Assembly (NCBI GenBank): GCA_041659045.1
Contig: JBAZZB010000002.1
Coordinates: 21,427 to 85,426 of the forward strand
Length of the DNA stretch: 64,000 nucleotides
DNA from: Patescibacteria group bacterium
GTDB taxonomy: Bacteria; Patescibacteriota; Patescibacteriia; SG8-24; DYFX01
Direction of reading: 5' to 3'
Of the stretch, positions 4,948-60,580 are shown piece after piece (the first letter of the stretch is position 1; every line of letters starts with the position of its first letter). Position numbers and translations under genes: made by a program. A model generated the notes under the pieces. That model did no database searches. It was not told the origin of the DNA and saw only the letters and a list, made by a program, of their open reading frames with translations.

Positions 4948-4953
4948 CAACAT

Positions 4954-5238: not shown

Positions 5239-5246
5239 AAGAAAAG

Positions 5247-5278
5247 ACCCTCCGACGAGTTCGGAGGGTTTGTCGTTT
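5247..5278. terminator. bidirectional rho-independent terminator (hup / convergent small ORF)
   Basis: Hairpin ACCCTCCGAC-GAGT-TCGGAGGGT followed by TTTGTCGTTT; the complementary strand also ends in a T-run. Confidence 0.7.
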
Positions 5279-5583: not shown

Positions 5584-5609
5584 GGTAAGCCTCCTTCGAA
5601 CAGTTGGGG

Positions 5610-6878: not shown

Positions 6879-6956
6879 ATCAGGCTCAGCTTAGCGATCG
6901 AACCGCGCGTGGTCAAGCTAAAAGAAAACGCCTCGACCGGAGTCGAGGCGCTCTCC

Positions 6957-8765
<1,809 letters not shown>

Positions 8766-37912: not shown

Positions 37913-37987
37913 GGCCTCATCGTCTAACGGTTAGGACGGCTCCCTTTCACGGAGCAAATAGGGGTTCGATTCCCCTTGGGGCTACCA
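37913..37987 (+). tRNA. tRNA-Glu (anticodon TTC), CCA encoded
   Basis: Acceptor GGCCTCA/TGGGGCT (two G-U pairs), D-arm GTCTAACGGTTAGGAC, anticodon stem GCTCC/GGAGC with loop CTTTCAC, T-arm AGGGGTTCGATTCCCCT, then ACCA. The layout matches canonical tRNA-Glu. Confidence 0.8.
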
Positions 37988-38024
37988 TCAAAACACCCGC
38001 CGAATAGGCGGGTGTTTTGTATTC
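37980..38024 (+). repeat. direct repeat L: last 8 nt of tRNA-Glu plus its terminator hairpin (GGCTACCATCAAAACACCCGCCGAATAGGCGGGTGTTTTGTATTC)
   Basis: Exact 45-bp identity with 40612..40656. The hairpin ACACCCGCC-GAAT-AGGCGGGTGT plus T-run also serves as the tRNA terminator. Confidence 0.8.
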
Positions 38025-38130
38025 CGAAGTCTGCCTGTCCCTTTGGTACCAGGTACCGTTATCCGATAATTATGGTGCGTAAATATGTCCCATAAATTGC
38101 TATTCTGTCCCGACACCCACACGCATCATG

Positions 38131-38193
38131 CAGATATTCTGCTAGTGGGACTCGGGGGTACCATCCCAAAATCCGCCCAAATGGCGGATTTTG
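38131..38193 (+). repeat. intergenic repeat family copy A (CAGATATTCTGCTAGTGGGACTCGGGGGTACCATC plus hairpin)
   Basis: Shares CAGATATTCTGCTAATGGGACTCGGGGTCTACCAT plus a GC hairpin and T-run with copies at 39942..40007 and 41465..41534. Confidence 0.6.
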
Positions 38194-38291
38194 TGTTTCA
38201 TGGTAGCTGCGATAGTTGACGTGAATTCAGCACACCTGTAAGTTTGCGCTGGCTCAAACAAACAACCCGGGCCATGAAAAGGAAGTGGTAG

Positions 38292-39122
38292 ATGCGTTTT
38301 TCCCTACGGATTCTATTCGTCGTTCTTCTGGGAAGCGTGCCGCAGGCTTGTGTACTCGAATCAGACGATGATGCTGCCGCGAACGATGATCTCGGAAGTA
38401 CGGAGCAGGCACTGTCGAGCGATCCGCGTACACGAGTCGTTGAGGAGGCATCCTTCGCAATGACGGGCAACTACGCCGCGTACACAAGCAGTAACTGGCC
38501 GACGGCGACAACCCTCGCCGGGTACTACTACACATCGACGGACACTGGCGCGTGGAGCTCTTTGATCAACTCCTCGAGCTATTCCGCGTATGGCTACACG
38601 GGCTTCTACGTGTCGTGCATGCGGTATCGTTCTGAAGGGCACCTGCCCTCACCCTATACCAATTGCTATCTATCGACATCGAACGGGTACGGATCGTTCG
38701 AGATGCCCTATTACACCTGCCAAGGATACTGCCCGAGCACGAAGATGCGTGGCGGCCAGTGCAAGCCATTCATGAACCTCATTGCGTACCGCTCCGGCCA
38801 GTACCATGGAGCGAACTGGTCTTTCAAGGCATTGCCGTCCGATAGTGCCATTTCAAACTGGAGCACAGCAGCGGATCAGATGCCGTACGCAACGTACTCC
38901 AACATCCTTCCCGGCGATCTCCTTCGCCGCCCCTATGGCCACGCAGCCATTGTGGTACGGAAGGTCAGCAGTTCACAAATCGTCGTCTTCGACTCGAACT
39001 GGGTCGGCAACGGTGACGGCGACGAGGTTGTTGGATCGCATACACTCGGCTTCTCCGGAACCGGGAACAGCAACTTGGGTAACTATCGGGTACTCAAGTG
39101 CGTGTATAACGGCGGTTGCTAG
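38292..39122 (+). CDS. secreted CHAP-domain peptidoglycan hydrolase
   Basis: Signal peptide MRFSLRILFVVLLGSVP, a Tyr/Ser/Thr-rich middle, and a C-terminal CHAP-like Cys…His pair (GGQCKPFMNLIAYRSG … PGDLLRRPYGHAAIVV). Confidence 0.7.
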   Translation: MRFSLRILFVVLLGSVPQACVLESDDDAAANDDLGSTEQALSSDPRTRVVEEASFAMTGNYAAYTSSNWPTATTLAGYYYTSTDTGAWSSLINSSSYSAYGYTGFYVSCMRYRSEGHLPSPYTNCYLSTSNGYGSFEMPYYTCQGYCPSTKMRGGQCKPFMNLIAYRSGQYHGANWSFKALPSDSAISNWSTAADQMPYATYSNILPGDLLRRPYGHAAIVVRKVSSSQIVVFDSNWVGNGDGDEVVGSHTLGFSGTGNSNLGNYRVLKCVYNGGC

Positions 39123-39218
39123 CTGGCAGCGCTGTATGATTCTGTGGGGAGGGTCTGTGCCCTCCCCCTCTTTTTTCTCTACTGCTATACTTCTTTACGA
39201 AGAAACCTTACATATCCT

Positions 39219-39878
39219 ATGAAAAAAACGATTCCGGTAACACAAGCAGTGACTGCCCTCGCCCTACTTGGTATCGGCATTCTTGTTGGTGTGTATTTTG
39301 CATCAAAAAATTCAGTTTCGACGGGCGGCGCAGAGGCGGGCACGAACTCTTTTGAAGTCGCCAACTTGCCGAACAACAGTTTTGACGCGACGGAATCTAT
39401 CCCCGAAACCTCTGTAAAAGTTTCTTACCCAAAAAATGGCTTTTACGGACTAGGCGTAAAGACCGTGCAAGAAGGCGCGACTCCCAACGAAGCTATCCCT
39501 TTTCTCGGAGGAGTCGCTATTCTTCCGAATGTCAGTTCTTTGGAAGACCGGCCTTTCTCTTTAAGTGTCGGTGCCTATAAAAAGAGTGGCGCTGACACGT
39601 TGGAAGGATCGATCGTTAAAGGCGAGGTGAGCGGGGTTAAGATCGGTAAGCAGGAAATGAATGGAACATACCTGACCGTAAATAACCACCGGTACTTCGT
39701 TTATAAAGTTTTGGGGAGTCCGACACAGACTGCCTGGCATGCCGTATCATTCGGCAAAAAGGAGGTCATCATTGTGAGTTTCGAGTTTGTGCCCGGTAGT
39801 GATTCGGATTCTTACACCGCCTTCCGCAACAACGACCAACTTTTCTTTCAGATCCTTTCCCACATTTCCTTTGAGTAG
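39219..39878 (+). CDS. membrane-anchored hypothetical protein
   Basis: The ATG at 39219 starts MKKTIPVTQAVTALALLGIGILVGVYFA (N-terminal TM anchor), followed by an extracytoplasmic domain of unknown family. The ORF-track start at 39144 is less likely. Confidence 0.55.
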   Translation: MKKTIPVTQAVTALALLGIGILVGVYFASKNSVSTGGAEAGTNSFEVANLPNNSFDATESIPETSVKVSYPKNGFYGLGVKTVQEGATPNEAIPFLGGVAILPNVSSLEDRPFSLSVGAYKKSGADTLEGSIVKGEVSGVKIGKQEMNGTYLTVNNHRYFVYKVLGSPTQTAWHAVSFGKKEVIIVSFEFVPGSDSDSYTAFRNNDQLFFQILSHISFE

Positions 39879-39941
39879 GCAGGGTGCTGTGGGCTTGCAG
39901 CCAACAGCCAAAGCAGCTCACCTCCCCGCATCCATGCTCCG

Positions 39942-40007
39942 GAGATATTCTGCTAATGAGACCCGGGGTCTACCATCGCCGAATCCGCCCAACAGGCGGA
40001 TTTTGCG
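39942..40007 (+). repeat. intergenic repeat family copy B
   Basis: GAGATATTCTGCTAATGAGACCCGGGGTCTACCATC plus hairpin AATCCGCC-CAACA-GGCGGATT plus T-run. Extended similarity to copy C begins ~45 nt upstream (from 39897). Confidence 0.6.
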
Positions 40008-40060
40008 TTTTGTCGTTTGGTTCTATTTCATCCATACTATCTTTATAGAAACCCCTGAAC

Positions 40061-40609
40061 ATGAAAAAACCTTTTGCCATCATCGGCTGTGCCGTCGTCA
40101 TCGTTGCCACCTACTTCTTTGGCTACTTCTCCTCCAAAGAAGCATCTCGTATCGAGTTTGCCCAAATAGACTGCACCCCGGGCAGAGCCGCCACCGGCTC
40201 CTCCAAACTTTTCGGAAAAATCGTGAAGATCAACGAAAACAGTGTAGCGTTGCGCTTAGTCGAGTGGGTGGAGGGTGAAGATAATCAAGAGCAGGCTGCG
40301 CTTGAAACTGAGCGCTGCACGCTTGAGCGCATCGAAAAGGATGAGTGCGTGCCGAATAATTTCTTCTTGCGCGAAACGCAAAAAACTTTGCAGCTGCCGA
40401 TTGCTGCAAATCTGTCTGTCCAGGTTCTCTCGAATGGGGCAAATGGAGAGTTCAAGCAAGATGAGCAACAGAACACACTTCCTCGTGAGGTTAGTCTGAC
40501 TGATCTGCAGAAGATGTTGGAGATTGGCGAGTTCGCTATCTATACGCCCTTCGTCTTTACTACTACGAATGGAGCCATTACCAAGATTCAGGAGCAGTAC
40601 ATTCCGTAA
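40061..40609 (+). CDS. membrane-anchored/secreted hypothetical protein (182 aa)
   Basis: N-terminal hydrophobic anchor MKKPFAIIGCAVVIVATYFFGYF; low-GC codon usage; no domain recognised. Confidence 0.55.
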   Translation: MKKPFAIIGCAVVIVATYFFGYFSSKEASRIEFAQIDCTPGRAATGSSKLFGKIVKINENSVALRLVEWVEGEDNQEQAALETERCTLERIEKDECVPNNFFLRETQKTLQLPIAANLSVQVLSNGANGEFKQDEQQNTLPREVSLTDLQKMLEIGEFAIYTPFVFTTTNGAITKIQEQYIP

Positions 40610-40611
40610 CC

Positions 40612-40656
40612 AGGCTACCATCAAAACACCCGCCGAATAGGCGGGTGTTTTGTATT
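40612..40656 (+). repeat. direct repeat R (exact copy of the tRNA-Glu 3' end plus terminator)
   Basis: GGCTACCATCAAAACACCCGCCGAATAGGCGGGTGTTTTGTATTC is identical to 37980..38024. Confidence 0.8.
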
Positions 40657-40748
40657 CAGAATTGTTACCTGGCACTTAGGTACCAAGTGCCGTTTTTTTT
40701 GGATGATTATGCTACCATTACGGTCATAAACACTGAGAACAAGGTCAT

Positions 40749-41360
40749 ATGGCCCTCTCTGCATATCATCAGAAATACGCCTCAAAGCCGGACGAAGAAA
40801 TCGCCCGCCGCGCAAAAGCGAAGGAGGAAGAACTCCGGCGCATTTTTGATACCGCCCCGCTCCGTTCATCGGTAACGCCCATACGCGTGGCCATCATGGG
40901 ATGCGGTGAAAAACGGTTTATCCAACACCACCGCGACATCTTCCAAACACTTCTTGCTCGCCCCGTTGAAATCACGACGTTCGATCTTGTCACTGAGCAC
41001 CTTGCCGGTGAAACCCGCGTCTTTCAACACGACGTAACTCAACCGCTCCCCGATGCGCCCTACGACGTCACCTACGCGCATGTCCTTTTGAAGTTCATCC
41101 CGACGGACAAGCAGCTCGATGTGCTTCTGAACTCTTATACTGCATTGCGCGAAGGAGGCGTGGCTATCCATGTCTTTGATACCGAGGAGCTTTCAGCAAC
41201 ATCAACAACGCTTCCTGACGAGCTATACGCTGTTCCGCTCGAACGCTGGAAGAAGGAACTAGACGAACGCGGCATCAAACACGCAGAGGTTGCTTGGGAA
41301 ATCGAGGGTGTCCTACCGATGCCGCTCGAAGGCAGCGCACTGATGCTGTTGAAGGAGTGA
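40749..41360 (+). CDS. class I SAM-dependent methyltransferase (putative)
   Basis: VAIMGCGEKRF resembles the glycine-rich motif I, and the downstream acidic motif II-like FDLVTEH fits a Rossmann-fold methyltransferase; 203 aa. Confidence 0.55.
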   Translation: MALSAYHQKYASKPDEEIARRAKAKEEELRRIFDTAPLRSSVTPIRVAIMGCGEKRFIQHHRDIFQTLLARPVEITTFDLVTEHLAGETRVFQHDVTQPLPDAPYDVTYAHVLLKFIPTDKQLDVLLNSYTALREGGVAIHVFDTEELSATSTTLPDELYAVPLERWKKELDERGIKHAEVAWEIEGVLPMPLEGSALMLLKE

Positions 41361-41464
41361 ACGAATATCCATCTCATCCGACCATCTTCGTTCCCCATTG
41401 GCACCTAGGTACTAGGCACCAACACAGCAGCCAAGGCAGTCCACCTGCCCGCGTCCAAACCACG

Positions 41465-41534
41465 CAGATATTCTGCTAATGGGACTCGGGGTCTACCATA
41501 AAACGACACCGCTAAAAGGCGGTGTTTTCGTTTT
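41465..41534 (+). repeat. intergenic repeat family copy C
   Basis: CAGATATTCTGCTAATGGGACTCGGGGTCTACCAT plus hairpin AAAACGACACCGC-TAAAAG-GCGGTGTTTTCGTTTT. Confidence 0.6.
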
Positions 41535-41621
41535 GAAATGACCCCTCTGCACCTTGACATTTCTTTTTTTTCTGCCATACTGCAGATCCTCATCGCGTCC
41601 CAACATCGTACGGAGGCTGTC

Positions 41622-42611
41622 GTGGACAATAACGTCGTGGTCTTTCCAAGAGACTTCACCCCAGCGCACACCCTACTGAACCTCGATACTCGGATCATCT
41701 GCGGTGATCTGACTTCGATGGAAACCGCCGGCGACGATGTCGCTGAGGTTGCCATGGGTTCTGACCAACTGCGTCTCAGCTTGCGAGGCTTCAAGGTCAT
41801 GAACCCACCGAGGCCCGCCCGATCGAGCGGCTCCAGCGCCTTGTACCTGGCGAGCGGCAAGGAAAAGCGGGACGGACTCCTGCTGCAGTACCTGCCGCCG
41901 CACAGCACAACGTCACTGCACTACCACGCCTGTACCCTCGAGACGTTCCACTTGCTGGCAGGCCGCGCCGCCGTCAGGACACCATGGGGAACGGAAGAGC
42001 ACCTCGACGATGGTCGCAGGAGCTTCACCAATCCGATGTTCGTGCCGCACCAGGTCGTGACCGGCGAATCCGCGTCGATCATCTTGCTCGAGATGGGTCT
42101 GCCCACCGAGTCCACGGGTATGAAGGATCACTTCTACGTGGACACGGACACGGCGATCGACATCCACTCCAAGGGCGAGTATCCGTCGTCGGCGTTGAGC
42201 AACTTCGGCGCACACGCCTTCTCGCTCGACGGGATCGAGTGCGCGTCGATGGAGGGATTCCTCCAAGCACTCAAGGAGCGTGACCAGGATGTGCAGCCCG
42301 GCATCTGCGCACTCACTGGCGGCGCAGCCAAGCGACGTGGTGAGGAGCTGAGCCAAGCGCGTGGGCCTTCGGACCCGCTCTACTGGCAAGGCCAACCCAT
42401 CAATCGCCTTTCGGCGACGTACCAAGAACTCCTGGATCGAGCCTATGCGGAGCTGGCCAGGAACAGCAACTTCCAGGCGGCGCTGCGGGCCACGGGCGAC
42501 GCCTTGCTGGTCCACAGCATCGGCAAGAAGACGCCGGAAACCACCATCCTGACGGAGCTGGAACTCTGCTCACGCCTGATGCGGATCCGCCATTCCTTGC
42601 CGCAGTCATGA
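41622..42611 (+). CDS. cupin - NADAR (YbiA-like N-glycosidase/DUF1768) fusion protein
   Basis: GGAGG plus a 5-nt spacer before GTG at 41622. A TTGACA/17/ATACTG promoter lies inside the ORF-track N-terminal extension (41538..). Cupin motif SLHYHACTLETFHLL. The C-terminal NADAR signature is LSNFGAHAFSLDGIECASMEGFLQALKE. Confidence 0.65.
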   Translation: MDNNVVVFPRDFTPAHTLLNLDTRIICGDLTSMETAGDDVAEVAMGSDQLRLSLRGFKVMNPPRPARSSGSSALYLASGKEKRDGLLLQYLPPHSTTSLHYHACTLETFHLLAGRAAVRTPWGTEEHLDDGRRSFTNPMFVPHQVVTGESASIILLEMGLPTESTGMKDHFYVDTDTAIDIHSKGEYPSSALSNFGAHAFSLDGIECASMEGFLQALKERDQDVQPGICALTGGAAKRRGEELSQARGPSDPLYWQGQPINRLSATYQELLDRAYAELARNSNFQAALRATGDALLVHSIGKKTPETTILTELELCSRLMRIRHSLPQS

Positions 42612-42618
42612 ACACCTT

Positions 42619-42652
42619 GAAACCGGTCTGACTCATCAGATCGGTCTTTTAT
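42619..42652 (+). terminator. rho-independent terminator
   Basis: GACCGGTCTGA-CTCA-TCAGATCGGTC followed by TTTTATT. Confidence 0.5.
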
Positions 42653-42844
42653 TATGCGCTGCAGACGGTTGTAAAAATTCATACACGGCCCCATTGCTCC
42701 ACCTATCGTGGCCGTTGACGCTTTTCGTTGACCAATGGGCCTGCCTACTGTTGAAAGTATTGACAAAAAGGCGGAAGCGTAGTACTTTCCGCGTCTGGGT
42801 TTGGACAAACCGACCTGGTCGGAGACTTACCCATGGAGGACCTC

Positions 42845-43291
42845 ATGCGTAGCACCTTCGTTAGCGGTTCCCTTGCGTTCCTGTTCGGCCTGGCCTGCAT
42901 CCTCGGCAACGCCGGCGCAGACAGCAACCACAGCGCCCCGAGCAACCACTCGGGCACCTTCCTCGCCGATCCGGCGAGTCTGATCTACGACGGCACGTCC
43001 GTCGTCATGATCGGGATCATGAACTCGCCGAGCTGCGGCCAGTTCACGACCGAAGACCAGACCTGCAGCGGCGACGCCGTCGACTCCGACGGGGACGGCA
43101 TCTTCGATGCCAGTTCCTCGGAGCGTCGCATGGGCGAGCTCGACTGCTCGGACCCCCGGCTCACGGGTTGCGAGGAGTGCCTGGGCACGGTGCGCATCTG
43201 CTGCCCGTCGCAGGAGTGCACCGTCAGCAACTGCCCCGGCAAGAGCGGGTACTGTCCCAACGACAAGGGCGGAGGCAGTCACTGCTGCTGA
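42845..43291 (+). CDS. Cys-rich secreted small protein (148 aa, 14 Cys)
   Basis: GGAGG plus 5 nt before the ATG at 42845. Signal peptide MRSTFVSGSLAFLFGLACILGNAGA. C-terminal CxxC-rich segment (CSDPRLTGCEECLGTVRICCPSQECTVSNCPGKSGYCPNDKGGGSHCC). A TTGACA/17/TACTTT promoter lies upstream. Confidence 0.6.
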   Translation: MRSTFVSGSLAFLFGLACILGNAGADSNHSAPSNHSGTFLADPASLIYDGTSVVMIGIMNSPSCGQFTTEDQTCSGDAVDSDGDGIFDASSSERRMGELDCSDPRLTGCEECLGTVRICCPSQECTVSNCPGKSGYCPNDKGGGSHCC

Positions 43292-48360: not shown

Positions 48361-51300
48361 TTAGAGCGCGGTCAGGTCAACCGTGAACTCGCAGCCGGCG
48401 GGGTTCGAAAGTTCAACCCTCCAGCCGCTGTTGAAGTCCGTATCGGTCGAGCGCATCTCGACCAAGCGCGTCGTGTAACCGGCGCCGCCCTGGATTCGAA
48501 GGTTTCCGGCCCTGATGGAACCGTCGGCCTGAATCGTCGGTTGGGTCGGGACCTGCACCTGGAAGACAGCAGTGACGCCGGAGGCAACCTGGCAGGTGTC
48601 ATGCACGCGGAGCGTGTTGCCCTGGAAGCGCAGATCGCGCAGCCACGACTGAACCGCATCCGAGTTGCGCGAGTACGCCGGTGTCAGGTTCGCCTGAGCC
48701 GTCACGACATCGCCGGACTTCGCGTACGTCATTGAAGAGACGGATTCGTTCTGTTCGATGATCGAGCCGTTGCGGCTGAAGCGGACGACGTTATGTGCAC
48801 CGACCGAGAGCTGCAAGCCGCTGTGCGACCACATGTTGTTCGTCGCCGCGAGCCAACCATTGCGATAGAAGGTGAAGGCACCCTGATCGTGGTGGGCGTG
48901 CGATTCGTCATACGGACCAGCAACGAACGAGAGCCATGACGCGTTGGTGTTCCAAGAGCTGCGAGCGAAGAAGTGGCCGACGCCCGTGGCGTGGTATTCA
49001 AGCGCGGTCGGAGCCGTGGCAGCATCGGAAGTCGTCAGCAGCGACGGGCGCAGGTTAAAGCCCGTGAGCGACGTGACCGAGTTGTTGTTCAGCCACCACG
49101 TACCGCGGCGAGCCTGTTCGGTGCCTGTCACGAGAGAGACGGCTTCGCGAACGAGGTTCTCGTGGTAGTCGTAGAGTTCCGGCTGAGAAACGCGGGACTG
49201 GTCGCCGATCGGAGCGAAGCGATCCATCATCGGGACGGTCGCGTGGATCCAATAGTCGATCGTGTCTTTGGCGTGCGTGGAGAACCTCGAAAGGTCTTCA
49301 CCTGTCGACGCCTTCCACATGCGGTAGTCCTCGAAGAGGTTCTTCTGCGCGGTGCCGTAACCAGTACCTTCGCGTGAACCACCACCGTTGATGCGAGCGA
49401 AGTAGTCCACGAGCGGCGGATACTTGTTCTGCTGGAGGAAGCTCATCCACGTCGTGTTCTGCGAAGCGAGTGCCCAGAGCTGGGTCGCTTTCAAGAAGCT
49501 GAAGTGGTAGTTGTTACCCGGGTTATCAATCGACCAGCCGCTCCAAGGAGCGGAGCGCGTGCCCCAACGAGCGTTCGCGGGGTCCCAGACGTTGGCAATT
49601 GTACGATCAGCGAAGGCGGCCCAGCGTGTGCGCTGCGAGGCCGTGAGTCGGTCATATCCATGGTCGTACGTGAGTGCGACCTGTTCCATGACCCAACCCA
49701 CTTCAAGATACGAGTCGCCTGCAACCTCTGGGTTGCGACCTGCGGCGATATCCGCTTCCGCTTCAGCAACCAAGGCATCAACCCTGGCGATCGCGTGCGT
49801 GATATAGGAAGCTTGGTTCGTAAGAGCGTACATCACGACAGCGTCGCTCGGGGTATAGCCGTAGCCCGGGGAACCAGCGACTGCGGAGTCCACCCAGCTC
49901 CTAAAGCTGGCGTAGGTCGGCGCGGTTTGCTTGTAGTCTCGGAGTGAGATGAACGGACGGCTCGATGGGAAGCTATAGGTGTAGCCGGGGTAGATCGTAC
50001 TTGTTGGCGGCGGCGAGCACGTCTGTGTGGTGGCCGGGCTCGGGGTCGTAGCCGTCGAGCAATTGGTCGTCATCGTGCAGGTGCGCGTCTGGCTGCCGCT
50101 CGCGGAACAAGCGTTCCAAGCGGTACACGTCCAGGTATCGGCGGTACAAGCAGGCGGCGTTGTGGTAGTCGGAGTGCAGGACTGCGTCGTGGCCGGGCTC
50201 GGAGTCGTGACGCCGGTGCAATCCGTCGTCATGCTGCAAGAGCGCGTCTGGCCGCCACTTGCGGAACAGGCGTTCCAATCCGTGCAGGACCACGTATCGG
50301 CCGTGCAAGAAGGCGAAGTTGAAGGAGCCGTGCAAGACTGGGTCGTCGCCGGGCTCGGCGTCGTGACGCCGGCGCAGTCAGCGGTCATAAGGCAGCTGCG
50401 AGCCTGGTTTCCGCTGGTCGAGCACATGACCCAATCCGTGCAGGACCACGTATCGGCCGTGCAAGAGGTCGCTCCGCCACCTGTCGAGCTGCTGCCGGGC
50501 ACCACAACATACAGGTGCGCGTCATCAACCGTAGCGGTAATCGTTCCGCCGTCATCCAGTTTGAACTGGAAGAAGACGCGTTCAAGCTGCTGGTTATTGG
50601 TGTTGAGGTTCAAGTAGACATCGACGACCTGCGTGCTCACCGGATAGTCCTGGCAGGTCGAAATTGGATCGCTGGACGAAGACAGGTAGGCAAGCGAGCA
50701 GACCTGCAAGCGGAGACCCGCAGTGGACGCACTGTCGACGCGCACTTTCGCCTTGACCGACACGGAGCTACCAAGAGGGCCACCGTTATACGGATAGTTG
50801 TGAGCGAAGGCAACGCGACCATACGAGTTCACCGTCACACGAAGGCTGTTCGTGCCCTGGAGCGTGCTCGCGGTCGTGCGAGCGACCATGCCGTCGGCGG
50901 ATTCGTTCGGTTCGAAGCCGGCGACCGACGTTTCGAATCCGTTGTCAGTAATAAGGTCAACGAGCTGGTAACCGGAAGGTACCGTCGGCATCGTGCCGGT
51001 GCTCGGTGTCGGTGCAGGCGTCGTGGCCGGCGGAGTGCAGGTTTGCGTGGTCACCGGGCTCGGAGTCACAGTGCTTGCGCACGCATTCGTGATGATGCAA
51101 ATGCGCTGCTGGGTGCCACTCGCGGAACACGTATTCCAACCCGTGCAAGACCAAATGTCGGCCGTGCAGCTCGGAGTTGTTGGCGTCATGGTCGTTGGGG
51201 TGCAGGACTGTGTCGTGGCCGGGCTTGGAGTCGTAACACCAGCGCAGTCAGCGGTCATGGTGCAGACGCGCGTCTGGCTGCCACTCGTCGAACACGAGTT

Positions 51301-51972
51301 CCAATCGGTGCAAGACCACGTATCGGCCGTGCAGCTCGGGGTCGGTACTGGTGTCGGAGTGGGCGTCGGGGTCGGAGCCGGAGTTTCGCCTGTCGGAGGC
51401 GTCGGCAAAGGTGTCGTCGTGGCAACATCACCAAGACCCTTATCAGCGTTAATCGTGGTGGCCGAAGCGAGTTCGGCGTTGCGATCGTAGTCCGCGGCGG
51501 AAGCGATCGGCGAGCCGATCGTGTAGTTTACGAAGAAAGCGTCCGGGATATCATCAACGAGTGACGCCCAGCCCGCTCCAAAAAGCGTAGCGGCGACAGC
51601 CTCGGAGGCCACGTGACGCAAAACGCCTCCGCGGGAAATCGCGTAGACCTTAGGGTCCGTGTCGATTTTGATCATGCGGAAACCTGGGCGATACGTGACG
51701 TTGCCGCCAATGCGGCTCGCGGCCAGTTCAGCGGCGGTAACCGTCTGAACGCTGGAGAAGTCGACGTACCATGTGCGAAACACCCGTTCGTTCGGGAAGA
51801 CGTAACGCCGGCCGTTTGAACCGAAGTAGTAGACGGCGGGATTATCGGCGCGCTTGATGAGAGCACCCGGCGTCGGTGCGGCTTTTGCCGTAAGAGGCAT
51901 GCCGACGAACGACGTCGCGAGCGTAAGGAGGAGGATCAAGGCACGGAACGCGTTCGTCTTCTTCATAGGCAT
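48361..51972 (-). CDS. giant secreted protein: conserved N-terminal module, PT linker, 45-aa Cys-rich tandem repeats, CBM4/9-like domain, heparinase II/III-like (polysaccharide-lyase fold) C-terminal domain
   Basis: Signal peptide MPMKKTNAFRALILLLTLATSFVGMPLTAKA. Module YYFGSNGRRYVFPNERVFRTWY…IGGNVTYRPGFRMIKIDTDPKVY. Repeats SCTADTWSCTDWNxCSxSGxQTRxCxMTxDCAGVTTPSPATTQ in two plus four copies. CBM-like NGFETSVAGFEPNES…. C-terminal region …HHDQGAFTFYRNGWLAATN… Paralog of 57158..60580. Confidence 0.8.
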   Translation of the reverse strand: MPMKKTNAFRALILLLTLATSFVGMPLTAKAAPTPGALIKRADNPAVYYFGSNGRRYVFPNERVFRTWYVDFSSVQTVTAAELAASRIGGNVTYRPGFRMIKIDTDPKVYAISRGGVLRHVASEAVAATLFGAGWASLVDDIPDAFFVNYTIGSPIASAADYDRNAELASATTINADKGLGDVATTTPLPTPPTGETPAPTPTPTPTPVPTPSCTADTWSCTDWNSCSTSGSQTRVCTMTADCAGVTTPSPATTQSCTPTTMTPTTPSCTADIWSCTGWNTCSASGTQQRICIITNACASTVTPSPVTTQTCTPPATTPAPTPSTGTMPTVPSGYQLVDLITDNGFETSVAGFEPNESADGMVARTTASTLQGTNSLRVTVNSYGRVAFAHNYPYNGGPLGSSVSVKAKVRVDSASTAGLRLQVCSLAYLSSSSDPISTCQDYPVSTQVVDVYLNLNTNNQQLERVFFQFKLDDGGTITATVDDAHLYVVVPGSSSTGGGATSCTADTWSCTDWVMCSTSGNQARSCLMTADCAGVTTPSPATTQSCTAPSTSPSCTADTWSCTDWNACSASGGQTRSCSMTTDCTGVTTPSPATTQSCTPTTTTPPACTADTWTCTAWNACSASGSQTRTCTMTTNCSTATTPSPATTQTCSPPPTSTIYPGYTYSFPSSRPFISLRDYKQTAPTYASFRSWVDSAVAGSPGYGYTPSDAVVMYALTNQASYITHAIARVDALVAEAEADIAAGRNPEVAGDSYLEVGWVMEQVALTYDHGYDRLTASQRTRWAAFADRTIANVWDPANARWGTRSAPWSGWSIDNPGNNYHFSFLKATQLWALASQNTTWMSFLQQNKYPPLVDYFARINGGGSREGTGYGTAQKNLFEDYRMWKASTGEDLSRFSTHAKDTIDYWIHATVPMMDRFAPIGDQSRVSQPELYDYHENLVREAVSLVTGTEQARRGTWWLNNNSVTSLTGFNLRPSLLTTSDAATAPTALEYHATGVGHFFARSSWNTNASWLSFVAGPYDESHAHHDQGAFTFYRNGWLAATNNMWSHSGLQLSVGAHNVVRFSRNGSIIEQNESVSSMTYAKSGDVVTAQANLTPAYSRNSDAVQSWLRDLRFQGNTLRVHDTCQVASGVTAVFQVQVPTQPTIQADGSIRAGNLRIQGGAGYTTRLVEMRSTDTDFNSGWRVELSNPAGCEFTVDLTAL

Positions 51973-52192: not shown

Positions 52193-53998
52193 ATGAAAAA
52201 ATATGTGCGCGCGTCGAGCGGCTTTGCGGCTCTTTTTTTAGCTTTAATTCTTGCTCTACCGTTTAGTGCCAAGGCGGCAACGACGCCATCACTTGGTGCG
52301 GCGGCAGAGTATGCCATCTTGGCTAGCACCTACACCAACACGGTGGGTGGCACTACGGTCACTGGTAGTATCGGCTTCACAACACCTCCGGGTGTTGTCC
52401 CAGGTGGCGTCCACGCGAACTACGGTTCCGGCGCCCCGTATTCTACGGCCGGCACTGATCAAGGTACGGCACTTAGCGCTCTTGCGGCACAGGCCTGTAC
52501 ATTCACGTTCGCCCCAGGCGCAATTAACCTCTCAACCGACATCACGCACGGCCCGGTCGGTGTCTATACGCCTGGTGTCTATTGCAGCTCTGGAGCTATG
52601 AACGTCGGCGGTCCCCTGACCTTAAACGGCAGCGGCACCTACATCTTTAGAGCGGTCGGAGCGCTCACCTCGACGGCCGGCGCTGTCGTCACACTCTCTG
52701 GCGCTTCTGCTTGCGACGTCTTCTGGACGCCGACGCAAGCCACGACCTTGGCCGCCAACACGACATTTGCCGGTACCGTCATCGATAACGCAGGAGTGAC
52801 CGTGGGTGCCAACACCACATGGTCCGGTCGCGCTCTCGCCTTCGGAGGCACGGTTTCGACCGATACCGACACCATCAGCGTACCGACCTGCACGACGACG
52901 ACAACCACGACGTCGAGCAGCCCAAACCGCGGATCCATCGCTGTCATCAAGCGGGTTATCAACGATAACGGCGGTACCAGCACGATTGCGAACTTCCCCT
53001 TGTATGTGAACGGAACGCCGGTCGCTTCCGGTGTGAGCAATGATTTTTCGGCTCCGGCGGGCGTCTATACGGTAACGGAGAGAACGGATGAGCGTTATAC
53101 GCAAATCTTTTCCGGCGATTGCGACGCAAGCGGGCGTTTGAACCTGAACCCAGGCGATGTCCGTATCTGTATCGTCACGAACGACGACATTGGAGCGCCT
53201 GTGGCTGTTCCGCCCGTGCCGCCGCTGATCGATGTCGTGAAGGTTCCGAGTCCCCTCTCGTTGCCGAACGGCCCTGGTTTGGTGGAATACACCTACACCC
53301 TTCGCAACATCGGAACCGTTCCGGTCACGGACGTCACAATGGTCGGTGACACGTGCGTGCCGATCGTTCTCATGTCCGGCGACACGGATGCCGACTCTCG
53401 CCTTGATACGTCTGAAACGTGGGTCTATCGCTGCACGACACAGCTCAACGAAACGCATACGAATACCGTTGTCGCCACGGGTTGGGCAAACGGCATTAGC
53501 GCCGTTGATATCGCAAGCGCCTCGGTCGTCGTCGGCTTGCCGATCGTGCCGCCGCTGATTCACGTGACGAAGATTCCGAGCCCGCTCACGCTCGCCGCTG
53601 GAGGCGGAGTGGTCACCTACACCAAGAAAGTCACGAACCCAGGCATCGTAGCGCTGAGCAACGTCTACCTCACGGATGATATGTGCAGCTCTGTCGTGTA
53701 TGTGTCCGGCGATGCCAACAGCGATACGAAACTCGATACGTCGGAAACGTGGACCTATACCTGCCAAACAACGTTATTGAAAACTACGACGAATACCGTC
53801 ACGGCCAGCGGTGAAGCAAATGGTTTGACCGCAAGAGATTTCGCGGTCGCGACCGTTGTTGTCGCGGCTCTCGTGCCGAAACTGCCAAACACCGGATTCG
53901 CAAGCGCAAACATGGTCTTTGCCTGGAGCGCCTTCGCGGCAGCTCTGGTCATCAGCGCGGCACTCTGGGCAGTCCGTCGCAAAAGCCAGGTTCAATAA
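52193..53998 (+). CDS. LPXTG-anchored surface protein: DUF3494 (ice-binding-like) N-domain, prealbumin-like domain, two DUF11 repeats
   Basis: Signal peptide MKKYVRASSGFAALFLALILALPFSAKA. C-terminal sorting signal LPNTG plus hydrophobic helix plus RRKSQ. Internal modules are shared with 54743..57118. Confidence 0.8.
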   Translation: MKKYVRASSGFAALFLALILALPFSAKAATTPSLGAAAEYAILASTYTNTVGGTTVTGSIGFTTPPGVVPGGVHANYGSGAPYSTAGTDQGTALSALAAQACTFTFAPGAINLSTDITHGPVGVYTPGVYCSSGAMNVGGPLTLNGSGTYIFRAVGALTSTAGAVVTLSGASACDVFWTPTQATTLAANTTFAGTVIDNAGVTVGANTTWSGRALAFGGTVSTDTDTISVPTCTTTTTTTSSSPNRGSIAVIKRVINDNGGTSTIANFPLYVNGTPVASGVSNDFSAPAGVYTVTERTDERYTQIFSGDCDASGRLNLNPGDVRICIVTNDDIGAPVAVPPVPPLIDVVKVPSPLSLPNGPGLVEYTYTLRNIGTVPVTDVTMVGDTCVPIVLMSGDTDADSRLDTSETWVYRCTTQLNETHTNTVVATGWANGISAVDIASASVVVGLPIVPPLIHVTKIPSPLTLAAGGGVVTYTKKVTNPGIVALSNVYLTDDMCSSVVYVSGDANSDTKLDTSETWTYTCQTTLLKTTTNTVTASGEANGLTARDFAVATVVVAALVPKLPNTGFASANMVFAWSAFAAALVISAALWAVRRKSQVQ

Positions 53999-54089
53999 AC
54001 AGGAAACTCATTGCCGCGCTCATATTTTTGAGCGCGGCACCTGTTTTTTGTGGAAGATGAACATTTCTGAGAGCTGACTTGCAGAATCA

Positions 54090-54722
54090 ATGTCCCAAGT
54101 GCCACGCGAATTGAAAATCCGAGAGGAGCTAAGAACGTTTGCTGTTGTCTTGGCGGCAGGCAGCTTCTTGTTCGCGTACAACCTCTTGACGCGCGGAAGC
54201 GTCGTGCTTCCGGCGCGCGCAAGCGAGGCGGTCCAGACAGCAAACGTGTTGGCTGCCGCTGCGCCCACAAAGTACGTCGAGCAGCCGGCTCGTATCAGGA
54301 TCCCGCACATCGCGGTGAATGCGGCCATCGAACACGTCGCGCTCGCCAAAGACGGTTCTATGGACATACCGAAGCGTCCGATGAACGCCGCCTGGTACGA
54401 ACTTGGGCCGCGTCCCGGCGAGATCGGAAGCGCCGTACTCGCGGGCCACATCAATTGGTACAACGGCGCGCGAGGCGTCTTCAGGAATCTCCACAAGTTG
54501 AAACCTGGTCACACGATCCAAATCCAGGACACGAACGGAGTCGTTATGGTGTTTGTCATCAAAAACATCCAAGTCCTTCCCGCCGAGACGGATGCGACCA
54601 ACGTTTTTCATTCGGAAGACGGCAAAGCGCATCTGAATATCGTTACGTGCGGCGGCGTCTGGGACAAGCGAACGAAGCGGTATACGAAACGTCTTGTCGT
54701 GTTCGCAGATAAACAAGAATAA
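54090..54722 (+). CDS. sortase family transpeptidase
   Basis: N-terminal TM, catalytic His (AVLAGH) and the active-site Cys in LNIVTCGG; it sits directly downstream of the LPXTG substrate gene. Confidence 0.8.
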   Translation: MSQVPRELKIREELRTFAVVLAAGSFLFAYNLLTRGSVVLPARASEAVQTANVLAAAAPTKYVEQPARIRIPHIAVNAAIEHVALAKDGSMDIPKRPMNAAWYELGPRPGEIGSAVLAGHINWYNGARGVFRNLHKLKPGHTIQIQDTNGVVMVFVIKNIQVLPAETDATNVFHSEDGKAHLNIVTCGGVWDKRTKRYTKRLVVFADKQE

Positions 54723-54742
54723 CTCACGCGCACCGTCCGACT

Positions 54743-57118
54743 ATGCAAACGACTATGATACCTCGCACCAGAATCCGTGCGGTGCTGATTGGAGTCTCCG
54801 CCTTTTTCGGCCTGTTCTGTCTCGCATCGGCGACAAAAGCTGAGTCCCTGGTCCTCAACGCCGCCGCTGACTCGTACGTCCAAAGCGGGTCGCCAAACGC
54901 GAACAATGGCACCCAAAACATCATGGACCTGACCGACAATAAGCACGGTGTCATTCGTTTTGATCTCAGCGCGATTCCACCTGGGTCGACGATCACGTCG
55001 GCAATCTTGACGCTCCGAGCGACAGCCGTCGGCAATTCCGGATCGATTAAAAACTTCGGAATGCACCGAATCCTATCGGACTGGGTCGAAAACACCGTGA
55101 CATGGAACCTCCCGGGAAGCGCTGCGGGCACGCACTACGCGTCTGCGCCGATCCAGACGATCGCGGTCACAAACATCGGCCTTTATACCTGGAACGTTAC
55201 TTCCGACGTCGTGAGTTTTTCGAGCGGCTCTGAGGCGAATCGCGGCTGGCGCATTATCTGGTCGTCGAACACGAGCGGCGCAAGCAAGCAAGTCGACTTC
55301 GGATCGAAGGAAAATACCACGTCTACGAATCGTCCCAGTCTGACCGTCACCTATACACCGCCCGTTTCCGGATTGCAGCGCCAAGGAACGATCACCGTCT
55401 TGAAAGTCGTCATCAACGACAATGGCGGCCTAAAGGTTCCGGAGGATTTTCCAATTTTTGTCAATACGGAGCCGGTGACTTCCGGTATTTCGCATACCTT
55501 CCCCGCTCCGGCCGGTGTCTATGAAGTCAGTGAGCTCGGCGATCCAAACTATGTACGGTCGTTTTCGGGCGATTGCGATGCGGCCGGTCGATTAAACCTC
55601 AATCCCGGCGACGTGCGGTTTTGTATCATCAAGAACGACGATATCGGCCCACCCGTGCTGACCCCACCCCCCATCCCGCCACTGATCGGTGCCCTGCTGA
55701 CCGCGAATCCATTGGCGCTGCCGGACGGTCCCGGACGGGTTTCCTACGCGTACACGTTAAAGAATATCGGCTCAACCCCGATCACGGGAGTAACGATCGT
55801 CAGCGATACTTGTACGCCGACATTCTTGGGTTCGGGTGACACGAACAAAGACGCCAAACTTGATACAACGGAAACATGGGTCTATCAATGCGAAACGCAG
55901 ATTGAAGAAACGCGCACGAATACGACCATCACGACAGGGTGGGCCAACGGTCTGGTGACGGCCGATATTGAAGCATTGACGACCCTGGTCGGAACCTCGC
56001 TCGTAGCACCTATCATTCACGTGACGAAGGTTCCGAGTCCACTCGCCCTGAGCGCTGCCGGCGGCATCGTGACCTACACGCAGCAAATCACGAATCCCGG
56101 CACAGTCGCGCTCAGCAATGTACGCATCTCGGACGACGTTTGCGCGCCACTGCAGTACATTTCCGGCGACTCCAACGACGACGGTTTGCTCAACACGACC
56201 GAAACTTGGACGTACATCTGCCGGAAGGTGCTGACCAAGACCACGACCAACACCGTCGTCGTGAGCGGAGAAGCGAACGGTATGGTGGCAAGAGATTTTG
56301 CGCTGGCCACCGTTGTCCTGTCGGACGTGATGGATACGCACTACTACGGCGCCACAGAGGCAACAGCATCCGCGATGAGCATCAGCGCCAACAACGGTAT
56401 GCTGCTACCCCCTCTTGGCCAACCCGCATTATGTGCTGACGGCAGTCTCATGACATTGCCAGATGACGGCAATGCTTCCACACAGTCCGACTCCGCGCTC
56501 TATGTGTGTGGCATGGACGGAAAACGTTACGTCTTTCCGGATGTGGGAACGTATTACAGCTGGTACAAGGACTTTCAAGGCGTGAGCGTCGTCTCCGCAG
56601 AGTTTCTAGCGACTCTCCCGCTTGCCGGAAACGTCACCTACCGTCCAGGCCAGCGTTTATTGAAGATCGAGTCGGATCCAAAAACCTATGCTGTCGCGCA
56701 AGGTGGCGTGCTGCGCTGGGTCGTCGACGAATCGACGGCACAAGCCCTTTACGGAGCGCAGTGGAATACGTTCGTCTCAGACATTCCTGTTTCACTCTTC
56801 AGCGACTACCGCATCGGCGATCCTATTACGACGCAGGACGTGCTTCCGGATTCGATTCCTCCGCGCTCGGTTTGCATCGCGACTGCTGATTTTACCAAGT
56901 ATCTTTCGTTCGAAAGTGTGGACGCTGAGGTACGACCACTTCAGGAGCTGCTGCAGTGCCTTGGATACTTCCGAGCCGATGTGGCGCCAAACGGCTACTT
57001 CGGAGTTCAAACCAAGGTTGCCGTGGAGAAATTCCAAACCGCGCGCGGTATCGCGTCTGTCGGCTACGTTGGGCCAGCCACGCGTGCGGCTCTGAATACC
57101 TACGTCGAAGGTCGATAA
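54743..57118 (+). CDS. surface protein: DNRLRE-like N-domain, prealbumin-like plus two DUF11 repeats, conserved ~110-aa module, PG_binding_1 domain
   Basis: Signal peptide …SAFFGLFCLASATKA. DNRLRE-like segment LVLNAAADSYVQSGSPNANNG…FDLSAIPPGSTITSAILTL. Conserved module YVCGMDGKRYVFPDVGTYYSWY…AGNVTYRPGQRLLKIESDPKTY. C-terminal LQELLQCLGYFRADVAPNGYFGVQTKVAVEKFQTARG is a peptidoglycan-binding domain. Confidence 0.8.
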   Translation: MQTTMIPRTRIRAVLIGVSAFFGLFCLASATKAESLVLNAAADSYVQSGSPNANNGTQNIMDLTDNKHGVIRFDLSAIPPGSTITSAILTLRATAVGNSGSIKNFGMHRILSDWVENTVTWNLPGSAAGTHYASAPIQTIAVTNIGLYTWNVTSDVVSFSSGSEANRGWRIIWSSNTSGASKQVDFGSKENTTSTNRPSLTVTYTPPVSGLQRQGTITVLKVVINDNGGLKVPEDFPIFVNTEPVTSGISHTFPAPAGVYEVSELGDPNYVRSFSGDCDAAGRLNLNPGDVRFCIIKNDDIGPPVLTPPPIPPLIGALLTANPLALPDGPGRVSYAYTLKNIGSTPITGVTIVSDTCTPTFLGSGDTNKDAKLDTTETWVYQCETQIEETRTNTTITTGWANGLVTADIEALTTLVGTSLVAPIIHVTKVPSPLALSAAGGIVTYTQQITNPGTVALSNVRISDDVCAPLQYISGDSNDDGLLNTTETWTYICRKVLTKTTTNTVVVSGEANGMVARDFALATVVLSDVMDTHYYGATEATASAMSISANNGMLLPPLGQPALCADGSLMTLPDDGNASTQSDSALYVCGMDGKRYVFPDVGTYYSWYKDFQGVSVVSAEFLATLPLAGNVTYRPGQRLLKIESDPKTYAVAQGGVLRWVVDESTAQALYGAQWNTFVSDIPVSLFSDYRIGDPITTQDVLPDSIPPRSVCIATADFTKYLSFESVDAEVRPLQELLQCLGYFRADVAPNGYFGVQTKVAVEKFQTARGIASVGYVGPATRAALNTYVEGR

Positions 57119-60100: not shown

Positions 60101-60580
60101 GGCGGCGGAATTGATGGGCGAACCGTCGGTGTAGTTTACGAAGAAGGCGTCCGGAATATCGTCGATAAGCGACGCCCAGCCGGAGCCAAAGATGGCGGCA
60201 GCGACGGCTTCAGACGAAACAAAGCGCAAAATGCCGCCACGCGAGATCGCGTAGACGCTGGGATCGGTATCGATTTTGATCATGCGAGAACCCGGGCGAT
60301 ACGTGACGTTGCCGCCAATCGTGATCGCGGCGAGTTCATCGGCCGTGACGGTTTGAACGCTGGAAAAATCGGAGTACCAGGTTCGGAAAACGTTTTCGTT
60401 CGGGAAGACGTAACGCCGGCCGTTGGAGGCGAAGTAATAGACGGCAGGATGATCGGCGCGCTTGATGAGGGCACCCGGAGTCGGTGCGGCTTTTGCCGTA
60501 AACGGCATGCCGACGAAGGACGTCGCGAGCGTAAGGAGGAGGATCAAGGCACGGAACGCGTTCGTCTTCTTCATAGGCAT
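57158..60580 (-). CDS. giant secreted protein, paralog of 48361..51972, with a different (alpha/alpha)-toroid-like C-terminal domain
   Basis: N-terminal ~180 aa are >90% identical to the paralog, including the signal peptide and module. One plus two Cys-rich repeats and a CBM-like domain follow. The C-terminal 600 aa are distinct (…YYPYCVGSFRLKNPDAAGSFHDLKYSYSEGLLSNYLLTGD…), consistent with a glycoside hydrolase/lyase-like toroid; this call is low certainty. Confidence 0.8.
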   Translation of the reverse strand: MPMKKTNAFRALILLLTLATSFVGMPFTAKAAPTPGALIKRADHPAVYYFASNGRRYVFPNENVFRTWYSDFSSVQTVTADELAAITIGGNVTYRPGSRMIKIDTDPSVYAISRGGILRFVSSEAVAAAIFGSGWASLIDDIPDAFFVNYTDGSPINSAADYDRTAELASATSINGDKGLGNIATPTPPPAPTPTPTPTPTPSCTADVWSCTDWNACSASGSQTRLCSMTTDCAGVTTPSPATTQSCTPPVTTPAPTPTPTTGQMPTVPSGSALADYITDNGFESSVGGFEPNESSDGTVSRITASPIQGTSSLRVTTNSYGRVSFAHNYPYNGGPLASSVTVKAKVRVDSASAAGLRMQICSIAYLASSGQPISSCQDYPVSTQSTDVYLNLNTNNQRLERVFFQFKLDDAGTITATVDDAHLYVVEQRAASTPAPTCTADTWSCTDWNACSTSGNQTRLCSMTSDCAGVTTPSPATSQSCSTTTPTPAPAPTPSPSCTADTWTCTDWNACSASGSQTRSCSMTTDCAGVTTPSPATSQSCTVPPPASDSTNLELSGYNSRPTTFRSMTAEMDLRNDLSSNGAAVNTTPKDVTVRLIPAADSVGQTRRVSFGFPLPPSTLVNTNNIRVTNAAGQELPAFVRSLGAWEQMPDQRLLCNGLTASGNPGIRSVLVQFDMNFSSTSPVTVTVGLNRARTQNLTSETPVRDTYRVVNDGTYAPSVNTSGLTIREPRVLAAIDNRYLDCTAIFPMVNPTGTQTYLAATDKATDDFFYSLTNQHSVKQSWPVTYADDLIDFYTDAEPWLYDRTQTFYNGYFRTGNADMLREAQRAADHYAQNIYGPENCSGTYYPYCVGSFRLKNPDAAGSFHDLKYSYSEGLLSNYLLTGDTTHLKKIGYISWAMEFHINLMGTGETERHRGYALLAHAVDAELTGSAHQRAMVTNAINTMRARQTSSLNGNAPNGCFNYPPEGENNTFSPWMSSLLAYGFLRGYQATGHSSVPAALVDLAQCEVNRGITTLQAGEDGPMSVGRYYPYYIAYSFGAKGDADPDPANGFEHSLDVSSVVALGAYFTTDMTQRTSLQNIAKQLLLTHDESIAYWTRNSDATRAAGRAVYRTVPPRKFLWQYKNAPVIGWALGGRSMW

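Follow-up and report, generated by a model that had tools for sequence, protein, structure and literature searches.

Hydrolases of the NADAR superfamily have recently been shown to reverse the ADP-ribosylation of guanine, and also of cytidine, in nucleic acids. Most NADARs have been described as free-standing domains (PMC11543638), and the cluster typified by the protein of bacteriophage T4 as mainly confined to T4-like phages (PMC11825919). This study concerns a gene of a Patescibacteria group bacterium that encodes a protein of 329 residues, in which a NADAR domain of the T4 type forms the C-terminal half and a cupin domain the N-terminal half. The gene lies in a stretch of 64,000 nucleotides, referred to here as the window (assembly GCA_041659045.1, contig JBAZZB010000002.1, positions 21,427 to 85,426). 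An original prediction, made from the letters of this DNA, had described the gene as a cupin-NADAR fusion carried by a mobile cassette within an array of tRNA-Glu repeats.

The closest known protein is the product of T4 gene 30.3, the only tested member of its subfamily. In vitro, this NADAR protein hydrolyses guanosine-ADP-ribose (PMC11125620); in vivo, it counters DarTG1 by stripping ADP-ribose from DNA, where N2 of guanine is its proven site of action (PMC11125620, PMC11825919). It has been renamed AdfN (anti-DarT factor NADAR), because it lets T-even phages escape DarTG1; the substitutions E36A and K43A weaken this rescue, and the activity of the RB69 allele is abolished by loss of the last helix (PMC11825919). 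The third active-site position differs among the NADAR types, being His in the phage type, Glu in the YbiA type and Asp in the DarT1-linked BC4488 type (PMC11543638, PMC11825919). Enzymes of the YbiA type are N-glycosidases that act on the 5'-phosphoribosylamino-pyrimidine intermediates of riboflavin synthesis, according to Frelin et al. 2015 as cited in PMC9206674 and PMC6793443.

The C-terminal half of the Patescibacteria protein is a NADAR domain of the gp30.3/AdfN subfamily, with the known catalytic positions all intact. Four lines of evidence carry this assignment: a Pfam family match, identity to the T4 protein, conservation of the catalytic residues and the fold. The domain matches PF08010 (Phage_30_3, 'bacteriophage protein GP30.3') in hmmscan with an E-value of 7.8e-48 and 162.2 bits, the cut-off being 36, across model positions 2-137 of 138 (residues 215-351 when counted on the longest open reading frame (ORF), of 357 amino acids), and it matches phrog_652 with an E-value of 9.8e-36. 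Alignment of residues 172-329 with T4 gp30.3 extends from end to end over all 152 residues of the phage protein, with 39% identity (E 1e-30). In this pairwise alignment E36 and K43 of T4 correspond to E211 and K218, while the T4 His of the ...LKHSI... motif corresponds to H298. All three residues are unchanged across 50 aligned homologues, and the catalytic Glu and Lys are spaced by seven residues, as in the Phytophthora NADAR (PnNADAR, E43/K50), E. coli C7 (E88/K95) and T4 AdfN itself. The C-terminal helix is also kept, being predicted at residues 312-325 in the structural model, and the alignment continues to the very end of the phage protein.

An AlphaFold2 model of the NADAR domain alone has a predicted local distance difference test score (pLDDT) of 95.9. 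When this model was searched against the PDB, three NADAR structures stood at the top with probabilities of 0.99-1.00 and template modelling (TM) scores of up to 0.61: E. coli YbiA (2b3w), which was the best match (E 1.3e-5, TM 0.60), PnNADAR with ADP-ribose (8bau) and a Geobacter NADAR (GlNADAR, 8bat). Below these three, the probability of every match was 0.05 or less. A family profile compared with PDB sequences matched YbiA only (E 0.11), through a shared SNF...DG...sxE..fQa.Kf motif. The original prediction had recognized this half from the peptide LSNFGAHAFSLDGIECASMEGFLQALKE, which is present in the protein together with the HYH motif cited for the cupin, and had named PF08719 as the family that it should match. 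Membership of the NADAR superfamily is upheld by the fold, by PF08010 and by the catalytic residues; the PF08719 match, on the other hand, failed to appear (no match at E <= 1 in hmmscan of the window protein), and the assignment holds despite this failure because the domain belongs to the subfamily described by PF08010. Precomputed matches to both PF08719 and PF08010 are carried by five homologues (P0100, P0102, P0104, P0105 and P0111).

Comparison with the three described types places the fusion protein nearest to T4 AdfN, with which it shares PF08010, the catalytic Glu and Lys, the His of the subfamily and the C-terminal helix. Unlike AdfN, it is encoded on a Patescibacteria chromosome, in a 320-kb contig and between TsaD/tRNA-Glu and a major facilitator superfamily (MFS) transporter, and is thus not the phage-encoded gene that the term counter-defence implies; it also has an N-terminal cupin of 171 residues, which was seen in no phage of the searched collections. 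Antitoxins of the DarG1/BC4488 type, represented by the Geobacter lovleyi NADAR (8BAT), share the fold (TM 0.61, probability 0.99) and the conserved Glu and Lys, and by analogy the expected chemistry would be the same, removal of ADP-ribose from guanine. The fusion protein is nevertheless not a DarTG1 antitoxin, since no DarT is adjacent to the gene in the four fusion loci and the third active-site position is His instead of Asp; a further difference is the fused cupin, and PADLOC returned no match. Neither is it a YbiA-type enzyme. E. coli YbiA (COG3236, PF08719, DUF1768; 2B3W) has the best structural match, shares the sequence motif and acts on N-glycosidic bonds to ribose, as is predicted for the fusion protein. 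The latter differs in lacking a PF08719 match, in having His where YbiA-type enzymes have Glu (E125 in PnNADAR), in its domain architecture and in the absence of rib genes beside the fusion loci.

The N-terminal half is modelled as a double-stranded beta-helix, the fold of the cupins. Foldseek gave 447 PDB matches at E <= 0.001 for this part of the protein, and the 50 listed are cupin-fold structures with E-values of about 1e-6 to 1e-5. Two canonical cupin motifs, HYHACTLE-x6-G and PMFVPH, supply the four predicted metal ligands (H100, H102, E107 and H143), which are invariant in 12 of 12 fusion proteins and in 37 aligned members of the family, stand-alone cupins included. Residues S71, Y75, T97, S98 and G114 are likewise invariant over the 37 members, and at least 90% of them also have D169, H170 and Y172. 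The score of the window protein against Pfam Cupin_2 (PF07883) is 15.2 bits, below the gathering score of 27.2, so that it is the fold and the motifs that identify the domain; among the stand-alone relatives, P0112, P0118 and P0123 do reach this cut-off. For the cupin half no curated Pfam or NCBIfam model matched at threshold. The N-terminal cupin of the original prediction is therefore borne out by the fold and the invariant ligands, even though Cupin_2 itself falls short.

Among described small cupins, the archaeal phosphomannose isomerases (7ZVY, 7ZVM), TM1459 and TM1287 share the barrel and the two-motif His-His-Glu-His site. The weak best family matches of this cupin family are to Cupin_2 and to cupins of the mannose-6-phosphate and lyxose isomerase types (relatives weakly match the MannoseP_isomer and GMP_PMI models), and AraC-type ligand domains also weakly match some relatives. 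Identity to the small cupins, however, is 12-20%, and two features set the family apart from them: about 60-85 additional residues that form a beta extension at the N-terminus, and a family-specific DHxY motif at the C-terminal end.

When the cupin half was searched by itself with a word index, no homologues came up, though full-length ones exist, and an exhaustive representative search was used instead. With residues 1-172 as query this search brought up stand-alone proteins, roughly 170-215 residues long and falling into about 120 clusters at 50% identity, which align across the whole domain and end at the DHxY motif, where the NADAR domain of the fusion begins. For the scan of gene neighbourhoods a broad alignment proved too diverse, and a narrower one gave two genome and three metagenome loci; the neighbourhood statistics of the cupin family are thin because they comprise 13 distinct loci only. 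Since most of the other stand-alone loci have no NADAR gene nearby, the cupin family has a separate existence of its own. A few neighbours are suggestive. In an archaeal metagenome-assembled genome (MAG) a phosphoribosyl pyrophosphate (PRPP) synthetase lies 10 nucleotides upstream of the cupin (L008 2788-4354), and at another locus HAD_2 and His_Phos_1 phosphatase genes follow directly downstream of it (L024 415-2456). Two further loci (L009 1977-3319 and L015 3-1290) have in common a cupin neighbour that weakly resembles phosphoribosylanthranilate isomerase (PRAI); the two copies are 36% identical to each other, and the PRAI-like identity is below threshold (Pfam E 0.016, NCBIfam E 0.07, no PDB match). 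Together these neighbours show a faint ribose or sugar-phosphate theme.

The joining of cupin and NADAR is not confined to one gene. The fusion architecture recurs in twelve clusters at 90% identity, with lengths of 326-351 residues. At the metagenomic loci L012/L013 the two parts are separate genes in the reverse order: a stand-alone gp30.3-type NADAR of 153 residues ends 3 nucleotides before the start of the stand-alone cupin P0116, whose ribosome-binding site is inside the end of the NADAR gene. This NADAR shares 57% identity with the fused domain and is closer to it than most other homologues are. The recurrent fusion, together with the adjacency of the two genes in the opposite order, indicates that the halves are functionally linked. 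A full-text literature search, whose scope did not include the NADAR architecture catalogue of de Souza and Aravind 2012, gave nothing relevant on a NADAR-cupin combination; we thus did not find this domain combination described, yet it is assembled from known parts.

The gene is monocistronic and has its own predicted expression signals (Table 1). The longest mechanical ORF begins at an ATG at 41538 and shares the TGA of the GTG-started version; this ATG abuts the T-tail of the preceding terminator and is upstream of the promoter-like site. The evidence favors the GTG at 41622 as the start, because it is preceded by GGAGG, because it gives the length of the NCBI product P0001, because homologues start at the same place and because the closest orthologue also starts with GTG. 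P0001 is 100% identical over 329 residues and is named hypothetical protein (Patescibacteria group bacterium MAG, contig of 319,851 bp). In 11 of 11 full-length homologues the start is conserved at equivalent residues (M-x-N-x-VVFPRDF...). The closest orthologue belongs to the complete genome CP129476.1 (1.17 Mb; locus L002), a related genome with which the window was compared by tblastx. The promoter of the fusion gene is predicted from a match to consensus: the promoter-like site has 10 of 12 consensus positions and ranks first among the six sites that a scan of 8 kb gave, where 3.6 would be expected by chance; the -35 hexamer in the orthologue is TTGACG. The original prediction had also given the gene a promoter and a terminator of its own, and both sites are present, its spacing of 17 nucleotides followed by ATACTG being the same promoter-like site shifted by one base.

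Table 1. Positions, within the window, of the fusion gene, its domains and predicted functional residues, and its flanking signals
Feature	Position	Strand	Basis and details
Cupin-NADAR fusion coding sequence, 329 residues plus stop	41622..42611	+	GTG start; TGA at 42609-42611
Cupin domain, residues 1-171 (beta-strand N-terminal extension and barrel, ending at motif GMxDHFY)	41622..42134	+	Fold, ligands
Predicted metal-ligand codons	H100 41919-41921; H102 41925-41927; E107 41940-41942; H143 42048-42050	+	Motifs
NADAR domain, gp30.3/AdfN (phage) subfamily, residues 172-329	42135..42608	+	PF08010, T4 gp30.3 alignment, domain model
Predicted catalytic codons	E211 42252-42254; K218 42273-42275; H298 42513-42515	+	Alignment to T4 gp30.3
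Ribosome-binding site GGAGG	41612..41616	+	5 nucleotides before GTG; GGAGGCT kept in L002
Sigma-70-type promoter-like site	41554..41581	+	TTGACA at 41554-41559, 16 nucleotides, CATACT; TG one base upstream of -10
Intrinsic-terminator-like hairpin of 10 pairs, then CTTTTATTAT	42622..42654	+	Hairpin 42622-42645 with T-run
Last repeat copy, CTACCAT and hairpin terminator	41491..41539	+	Repeat family, alignment; terminator-like hairpin 41505-41526

Both halves of the protein are under purifying selection. Relative to the L002 orthologue, the ratio of nonsynonymous to synonymous substitution rates (dN/dS) is 0.27 for the whole protein, 0.25 for the cupin and 0.21 for the NADAR domain. A full-length AlphaFold2 model has a pLDDT of 94.3 and a predicted TM score (pTM) of 0.90, the latter of which suggests that the two domains are held in a fixed arrangement.

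We favor the interpretation that the protein is an orphan AdfN-type ADP-ribosyl N-glycohydrolase, accompanied by a cupin of the same pathway and serving as an antidote against foreign ADP-ribosylating toxins; we would put its chances at about even. The NADAR half would most likely cleave the N-glycosidic bond between ADP-ribose and a nucleobase, leaving free ADP-ribose and an intact base, and the T4 precedent points to guanine in DNA as the probable substrate. The cupin half, a presumed metal-binding domain (His-His-Glu-His), would act in the same pathway. Our preferred guess is that its substrate is the ribose or ribose-phosphate moiety handled or set free by the hydrolase, in a reaction of the sugar isomerase type; a less likely function would be to aid substrate recognition. 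The fusion protein may accordingly be regarded as an 'orphan' antidote or repair enzyme directed at ADP-ribosylating toxins that come from outside, whether from phages, hosts or competitors, and expressed as a single-gene unit with its own promoter at a fixed chromosomal position. The term orphan is used because no ADP-ribosyltransferase is encoded next to the gene. That NADARs of this kind might reverse nucleic-acid ADP-ribosylation was already part of the original prediction, and the idea is well founded, since the activity has been demonstrated for T4 gp30.3 (PMC11125620, PMC11825919).

Several observations weigh against this interpretation. T4 AdfN needs an unidentified T-even factor for its full function and does not rescue uninfected cells from DarT1 (PMC11825919, PMC11125620), and for these reasons the in vitro activity of the subfamily is no guarantee of a protective role. 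The genes neighbouring the fusion at four loci (the window and three others), to which the search was confined, showed no domain of DarT or of any other ADP-ribosyltransferase. PADLOC gave no matches for the fusion gene and seven neighbours, and a Pfam search of ten further large ORFs of the window revealed surface proteins, a secretion ATPase and uncharacterized proteins, with no ADP-ribosyltransferase among them. At about nine of the 13 stand-alone cupin loci the neighbours are uninformative, and a NADAR lies beside the cupin at one. The reaction assigned to the cupin is a guess, and the PRAI-like neighbour that bears on it is assigned below threshold. Finally, the many proteins in which a gp30.3-type domain is fused to dihydrofolate reductase (DHFR) point, for at least part of the subfamily, to small-molecule metabolism over DNA repair.

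These last proteins lead to the main competing explanation, in which the fusion protein serves metabolite damage control or salvage. Its NADAR half would hydrolyse a small N-ribosyl compound, in the manner of YbiA, to ribose 5-phosphate or ADP-ribose and a base, and the cupin would convert one of the products. The proven N-glycosidase activity of YbiA-type NADARs on riboflavin intermediates, as cited in PMC9206674 and PMC6793443, is one argument for this view. Another is that the gp30.3-type matches from public metagenomes among those listed (P0016-P0070) are mostly proteins of 316 residues with an N-terminal DHFR (PF00186), with rarer architectures that include NUDIX (P0071), ASCH (P0093, P0096), Sel1 repeats and leucine-rich repeats; the DHFR fusions parallel the plant reductase-COG3236 fusions and suggest a metabolite-level role for part of the 'phage' subfamily. 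The PRPP synthetase, sugar-phosphate phosphatases and weakly PRAI-like protein found beside stand-alone cupins, the stable chromosomal position of the gene and the missing toxin neighbour are also in keeping with a metabolic function. On the other hand, T4 gp30.3 acts on ADP-ribosylated DNA, the subfamily has His at the position of YbiA's defining Glu, and none of the four fusion loci has a riboflavin, folate or purine gene as a neighbour. The protein has, in addition, evolved faster than its housekeeping neighbours, with 73% identity to the L002 orthologue as against 92% for TsaD, which is more typical of conflict genes. We consider a metabolic role rather unlikely on balance, while granting it more credence than the two remaining alternatives.

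The genomic setting bears on whether the gene is, as the original prediction held, a mobile anti-defence or antitoxin cassette, recently gained from a phage or integrative element as cargo at a tRNA-Glu hotspot. The window contains one real tRNA-Glu only (37913-37987, found by ARAGORN and Rfam). The supposed array (37913-41539) consists of five copies of the last bases of this tRNA (CTACCAT), each with a hairpin terminator, at 37980, 38156, 39968, 40613 and 41491, among which 37980-38028 and 40613-40661 are 98% identical over 49 nucleotides. Four small genes lie between the tRNA and the fusion gene, one CHAP-like, two without a family match and one weakly methyltransferase-like; each ends in a CTACCAT copy plus hairpin terminator, and two of them have a low GC content (48-49%). 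No integrase is encoded among the intervening genes. The pattern resembles decayed att-site remnants from serial insertions. The fusion gene comes directly after the last copy, not between copies, at a distance of 3.6 kb from the tRNA-Glu, and this last copy separates the variable segment from the fusion gene. Three of the copies are preceded by a conserved element of 31-75 nucleotides holding a small hairpin GCAGATATTCTGC (38127-38157, 39902-39976, 41425-41499); this element is not recognized as a tRNA and folds no better than shuffled sequence (z -0.8 to -1.4).

Comparison with L002 decides the matter. Four anchors, namely TsaD, tRNA-Glu, the fusion gene and the MFS transporter, are collinear in the two genomes, and the material between the anchors is unrelated. 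The 250 nucleotides upstream of the gene in L002 are homologous to those of the window and hold the same layout of GGGCTACCA plus hairpin, a TTGAC -35 element, GGAGGCT and GTG. Because the orthologue keeps its place while both flanks differ, the fusion gene is the stable flank of an insertion hotspot, not a cassette. From the tRNA-Glu to the fusion gene, L002 has a 6.4-kb segment (1379-7920) encoding a large serine recombinase, an AAA_15/AAA_21 ATPase, small ORFs and an AbiEii nucleotidyltransferase, which is likely a defence island at the same hotspot. The segment closes at the GGGCTACCA plus hairpin repeat just before the fusion gene, and its serine recombinase is among the gene calls of the Logan assembly L001 but absent from those of the NCBI record.

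Base composition is divided in its testimony. The GC content of the fusion gene (62.2%, the window mean being 57.6%) is at the 95th percentile among windows of the same size, as might be expected of a recent arrival. The gene is indeed richer in GC than the four upstream genes (48-56%), as the original prediction stated of its neighbours, but it falls between these and the next downstream gene (66%), for which the statement does not hold. The GC content at third codon positions (GC3) is 0.79, similar to that of the downstream chromosomal genes (0.73-0.90), and the low-GC units are the upstream ones. That next downstream gene (42833-43291, + strand) encodes a cysteine-rich protein of 152 residues with an N-terminal hydrophobic, signal-peptide-like segment; its GC content and GC3 (0.90) are the highest among the genes measured, it has no Pfam or PADLOC match, and it is without a counterpart at that position in L002. 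Farther downstream are two paralogous large ORFs on the - strand (48361-51972 and 57158-60580), of 1203 and 1140 residues and without a Pfam match, which share 300-nucleotide stretches at 78-80% identity and contain internal repeats of about 160-200 nucleotides (families D1-D3 and D5). The region between them (52193-57118) encodes surface proteins with Ice_binding, CBM96, DUF7507/DUF11 and peptidoglycan-binding domains.

A phage origin can also be judged from the phages themselves. The NADAR subfamily is best known in T4-like phages, and a homologue is present in 1507 phage records; the phage homologues superpose on our model at 1.1-1.8 A, with target-normalized TM scores of 0.80-0.93. The cupin, however, had no tblastn match in 50,697 phage records, and in viral contigs and the BFVD viral structure library matches were to the NADAR half only, with neither the fusion nor the cupin found. 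Two other fusion loci are situated among ordinary chromosomal and housekeeping genes, with no tRNA nearby. Given these findings, recent mobile acquisition of the fusion gene is improbable, even though the gene lies beyond four units that end in a tRNA 3'-end copy and the adjoining L002 segment carries recombinase, ATPase and AbiEii genes, both of which speak for it. Among the phage sequences, two gp30.3-type NADARs bear labels that look like annotation errors: one in Klebsiella phage Roth20 (PQ657793.1 65865-66302) is called 'anti-CBASS protein acb1' and one in Escherichia phage MX01 is called 'DNA ligase'. T4 gp30.2, the neighbour of gp30.3, was considered as a phage counterpart of the cupin and rejected, as it has no Pfam family and a probability of 0.6% in hhalign against the cupin profile.

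A non-enzymatic cupin, sensing a ligand or docking to protein or DNA so as to regulate or target the NADAR half, would accord with the many small cupins that bind or regulate, with the weak AraC-type matches of relatives, with the stabilizing or localizing helper that T4 AdfN seems to need (PMC11825919) and with the tight packing that the high pTM suggests, yet it is highly doubtful, given that the metal ligands and S71, Y75, T97, S98, D169, H170 and Y172 are invariant or nearly so in 37 members, mostly stand-alone and with no NADAR nearby, a pattern typical of a catalytic site that functions independently.

The fusion gene is a new arrangement of known parts, without an adjacent toxin partner. 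It shows that the T4-type NADAR subfamily is present on bacterial chromosomes of the candidate phyla radiation (CPR) as well. This subfamily has been described as needing a helper (PMC11825919), and a conserved metal-binding cupin that is joined to it in one polypeptide or, at one locus, encoded by the adjacent gene offers a testable candidate for such a helper or for a second step in the removal of ADP-ribose. A bolder version, which we regard as unlikely but worth stating, is that the cupin represents a novel enzyme in the metabolism of ADP-ribose or ribosyl-N-glycosides and an obligate partner of AdfN-type hydrolases, and that the two-domain enzyme belongs to the innate immunity of the ultra-small Patescibacteria against DNA-ADP-ribosylating toxins of hosts, competitors and phages. 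If so, the cupin might isomerize or inactivate the reactive ADP-ribose freed from DNA, or might extend the hydrolase to a linkage between base and ADP-ribose that single-domain NADARs cannot reverse. In either version the fusion provides a first functional context for an uncurated cupin family, and if the bolder one is true, the stand-alone members, found mostly on CPR- and DPANN-like contigs, would represent an unrecognized player in ribose-phosphate chemistry.

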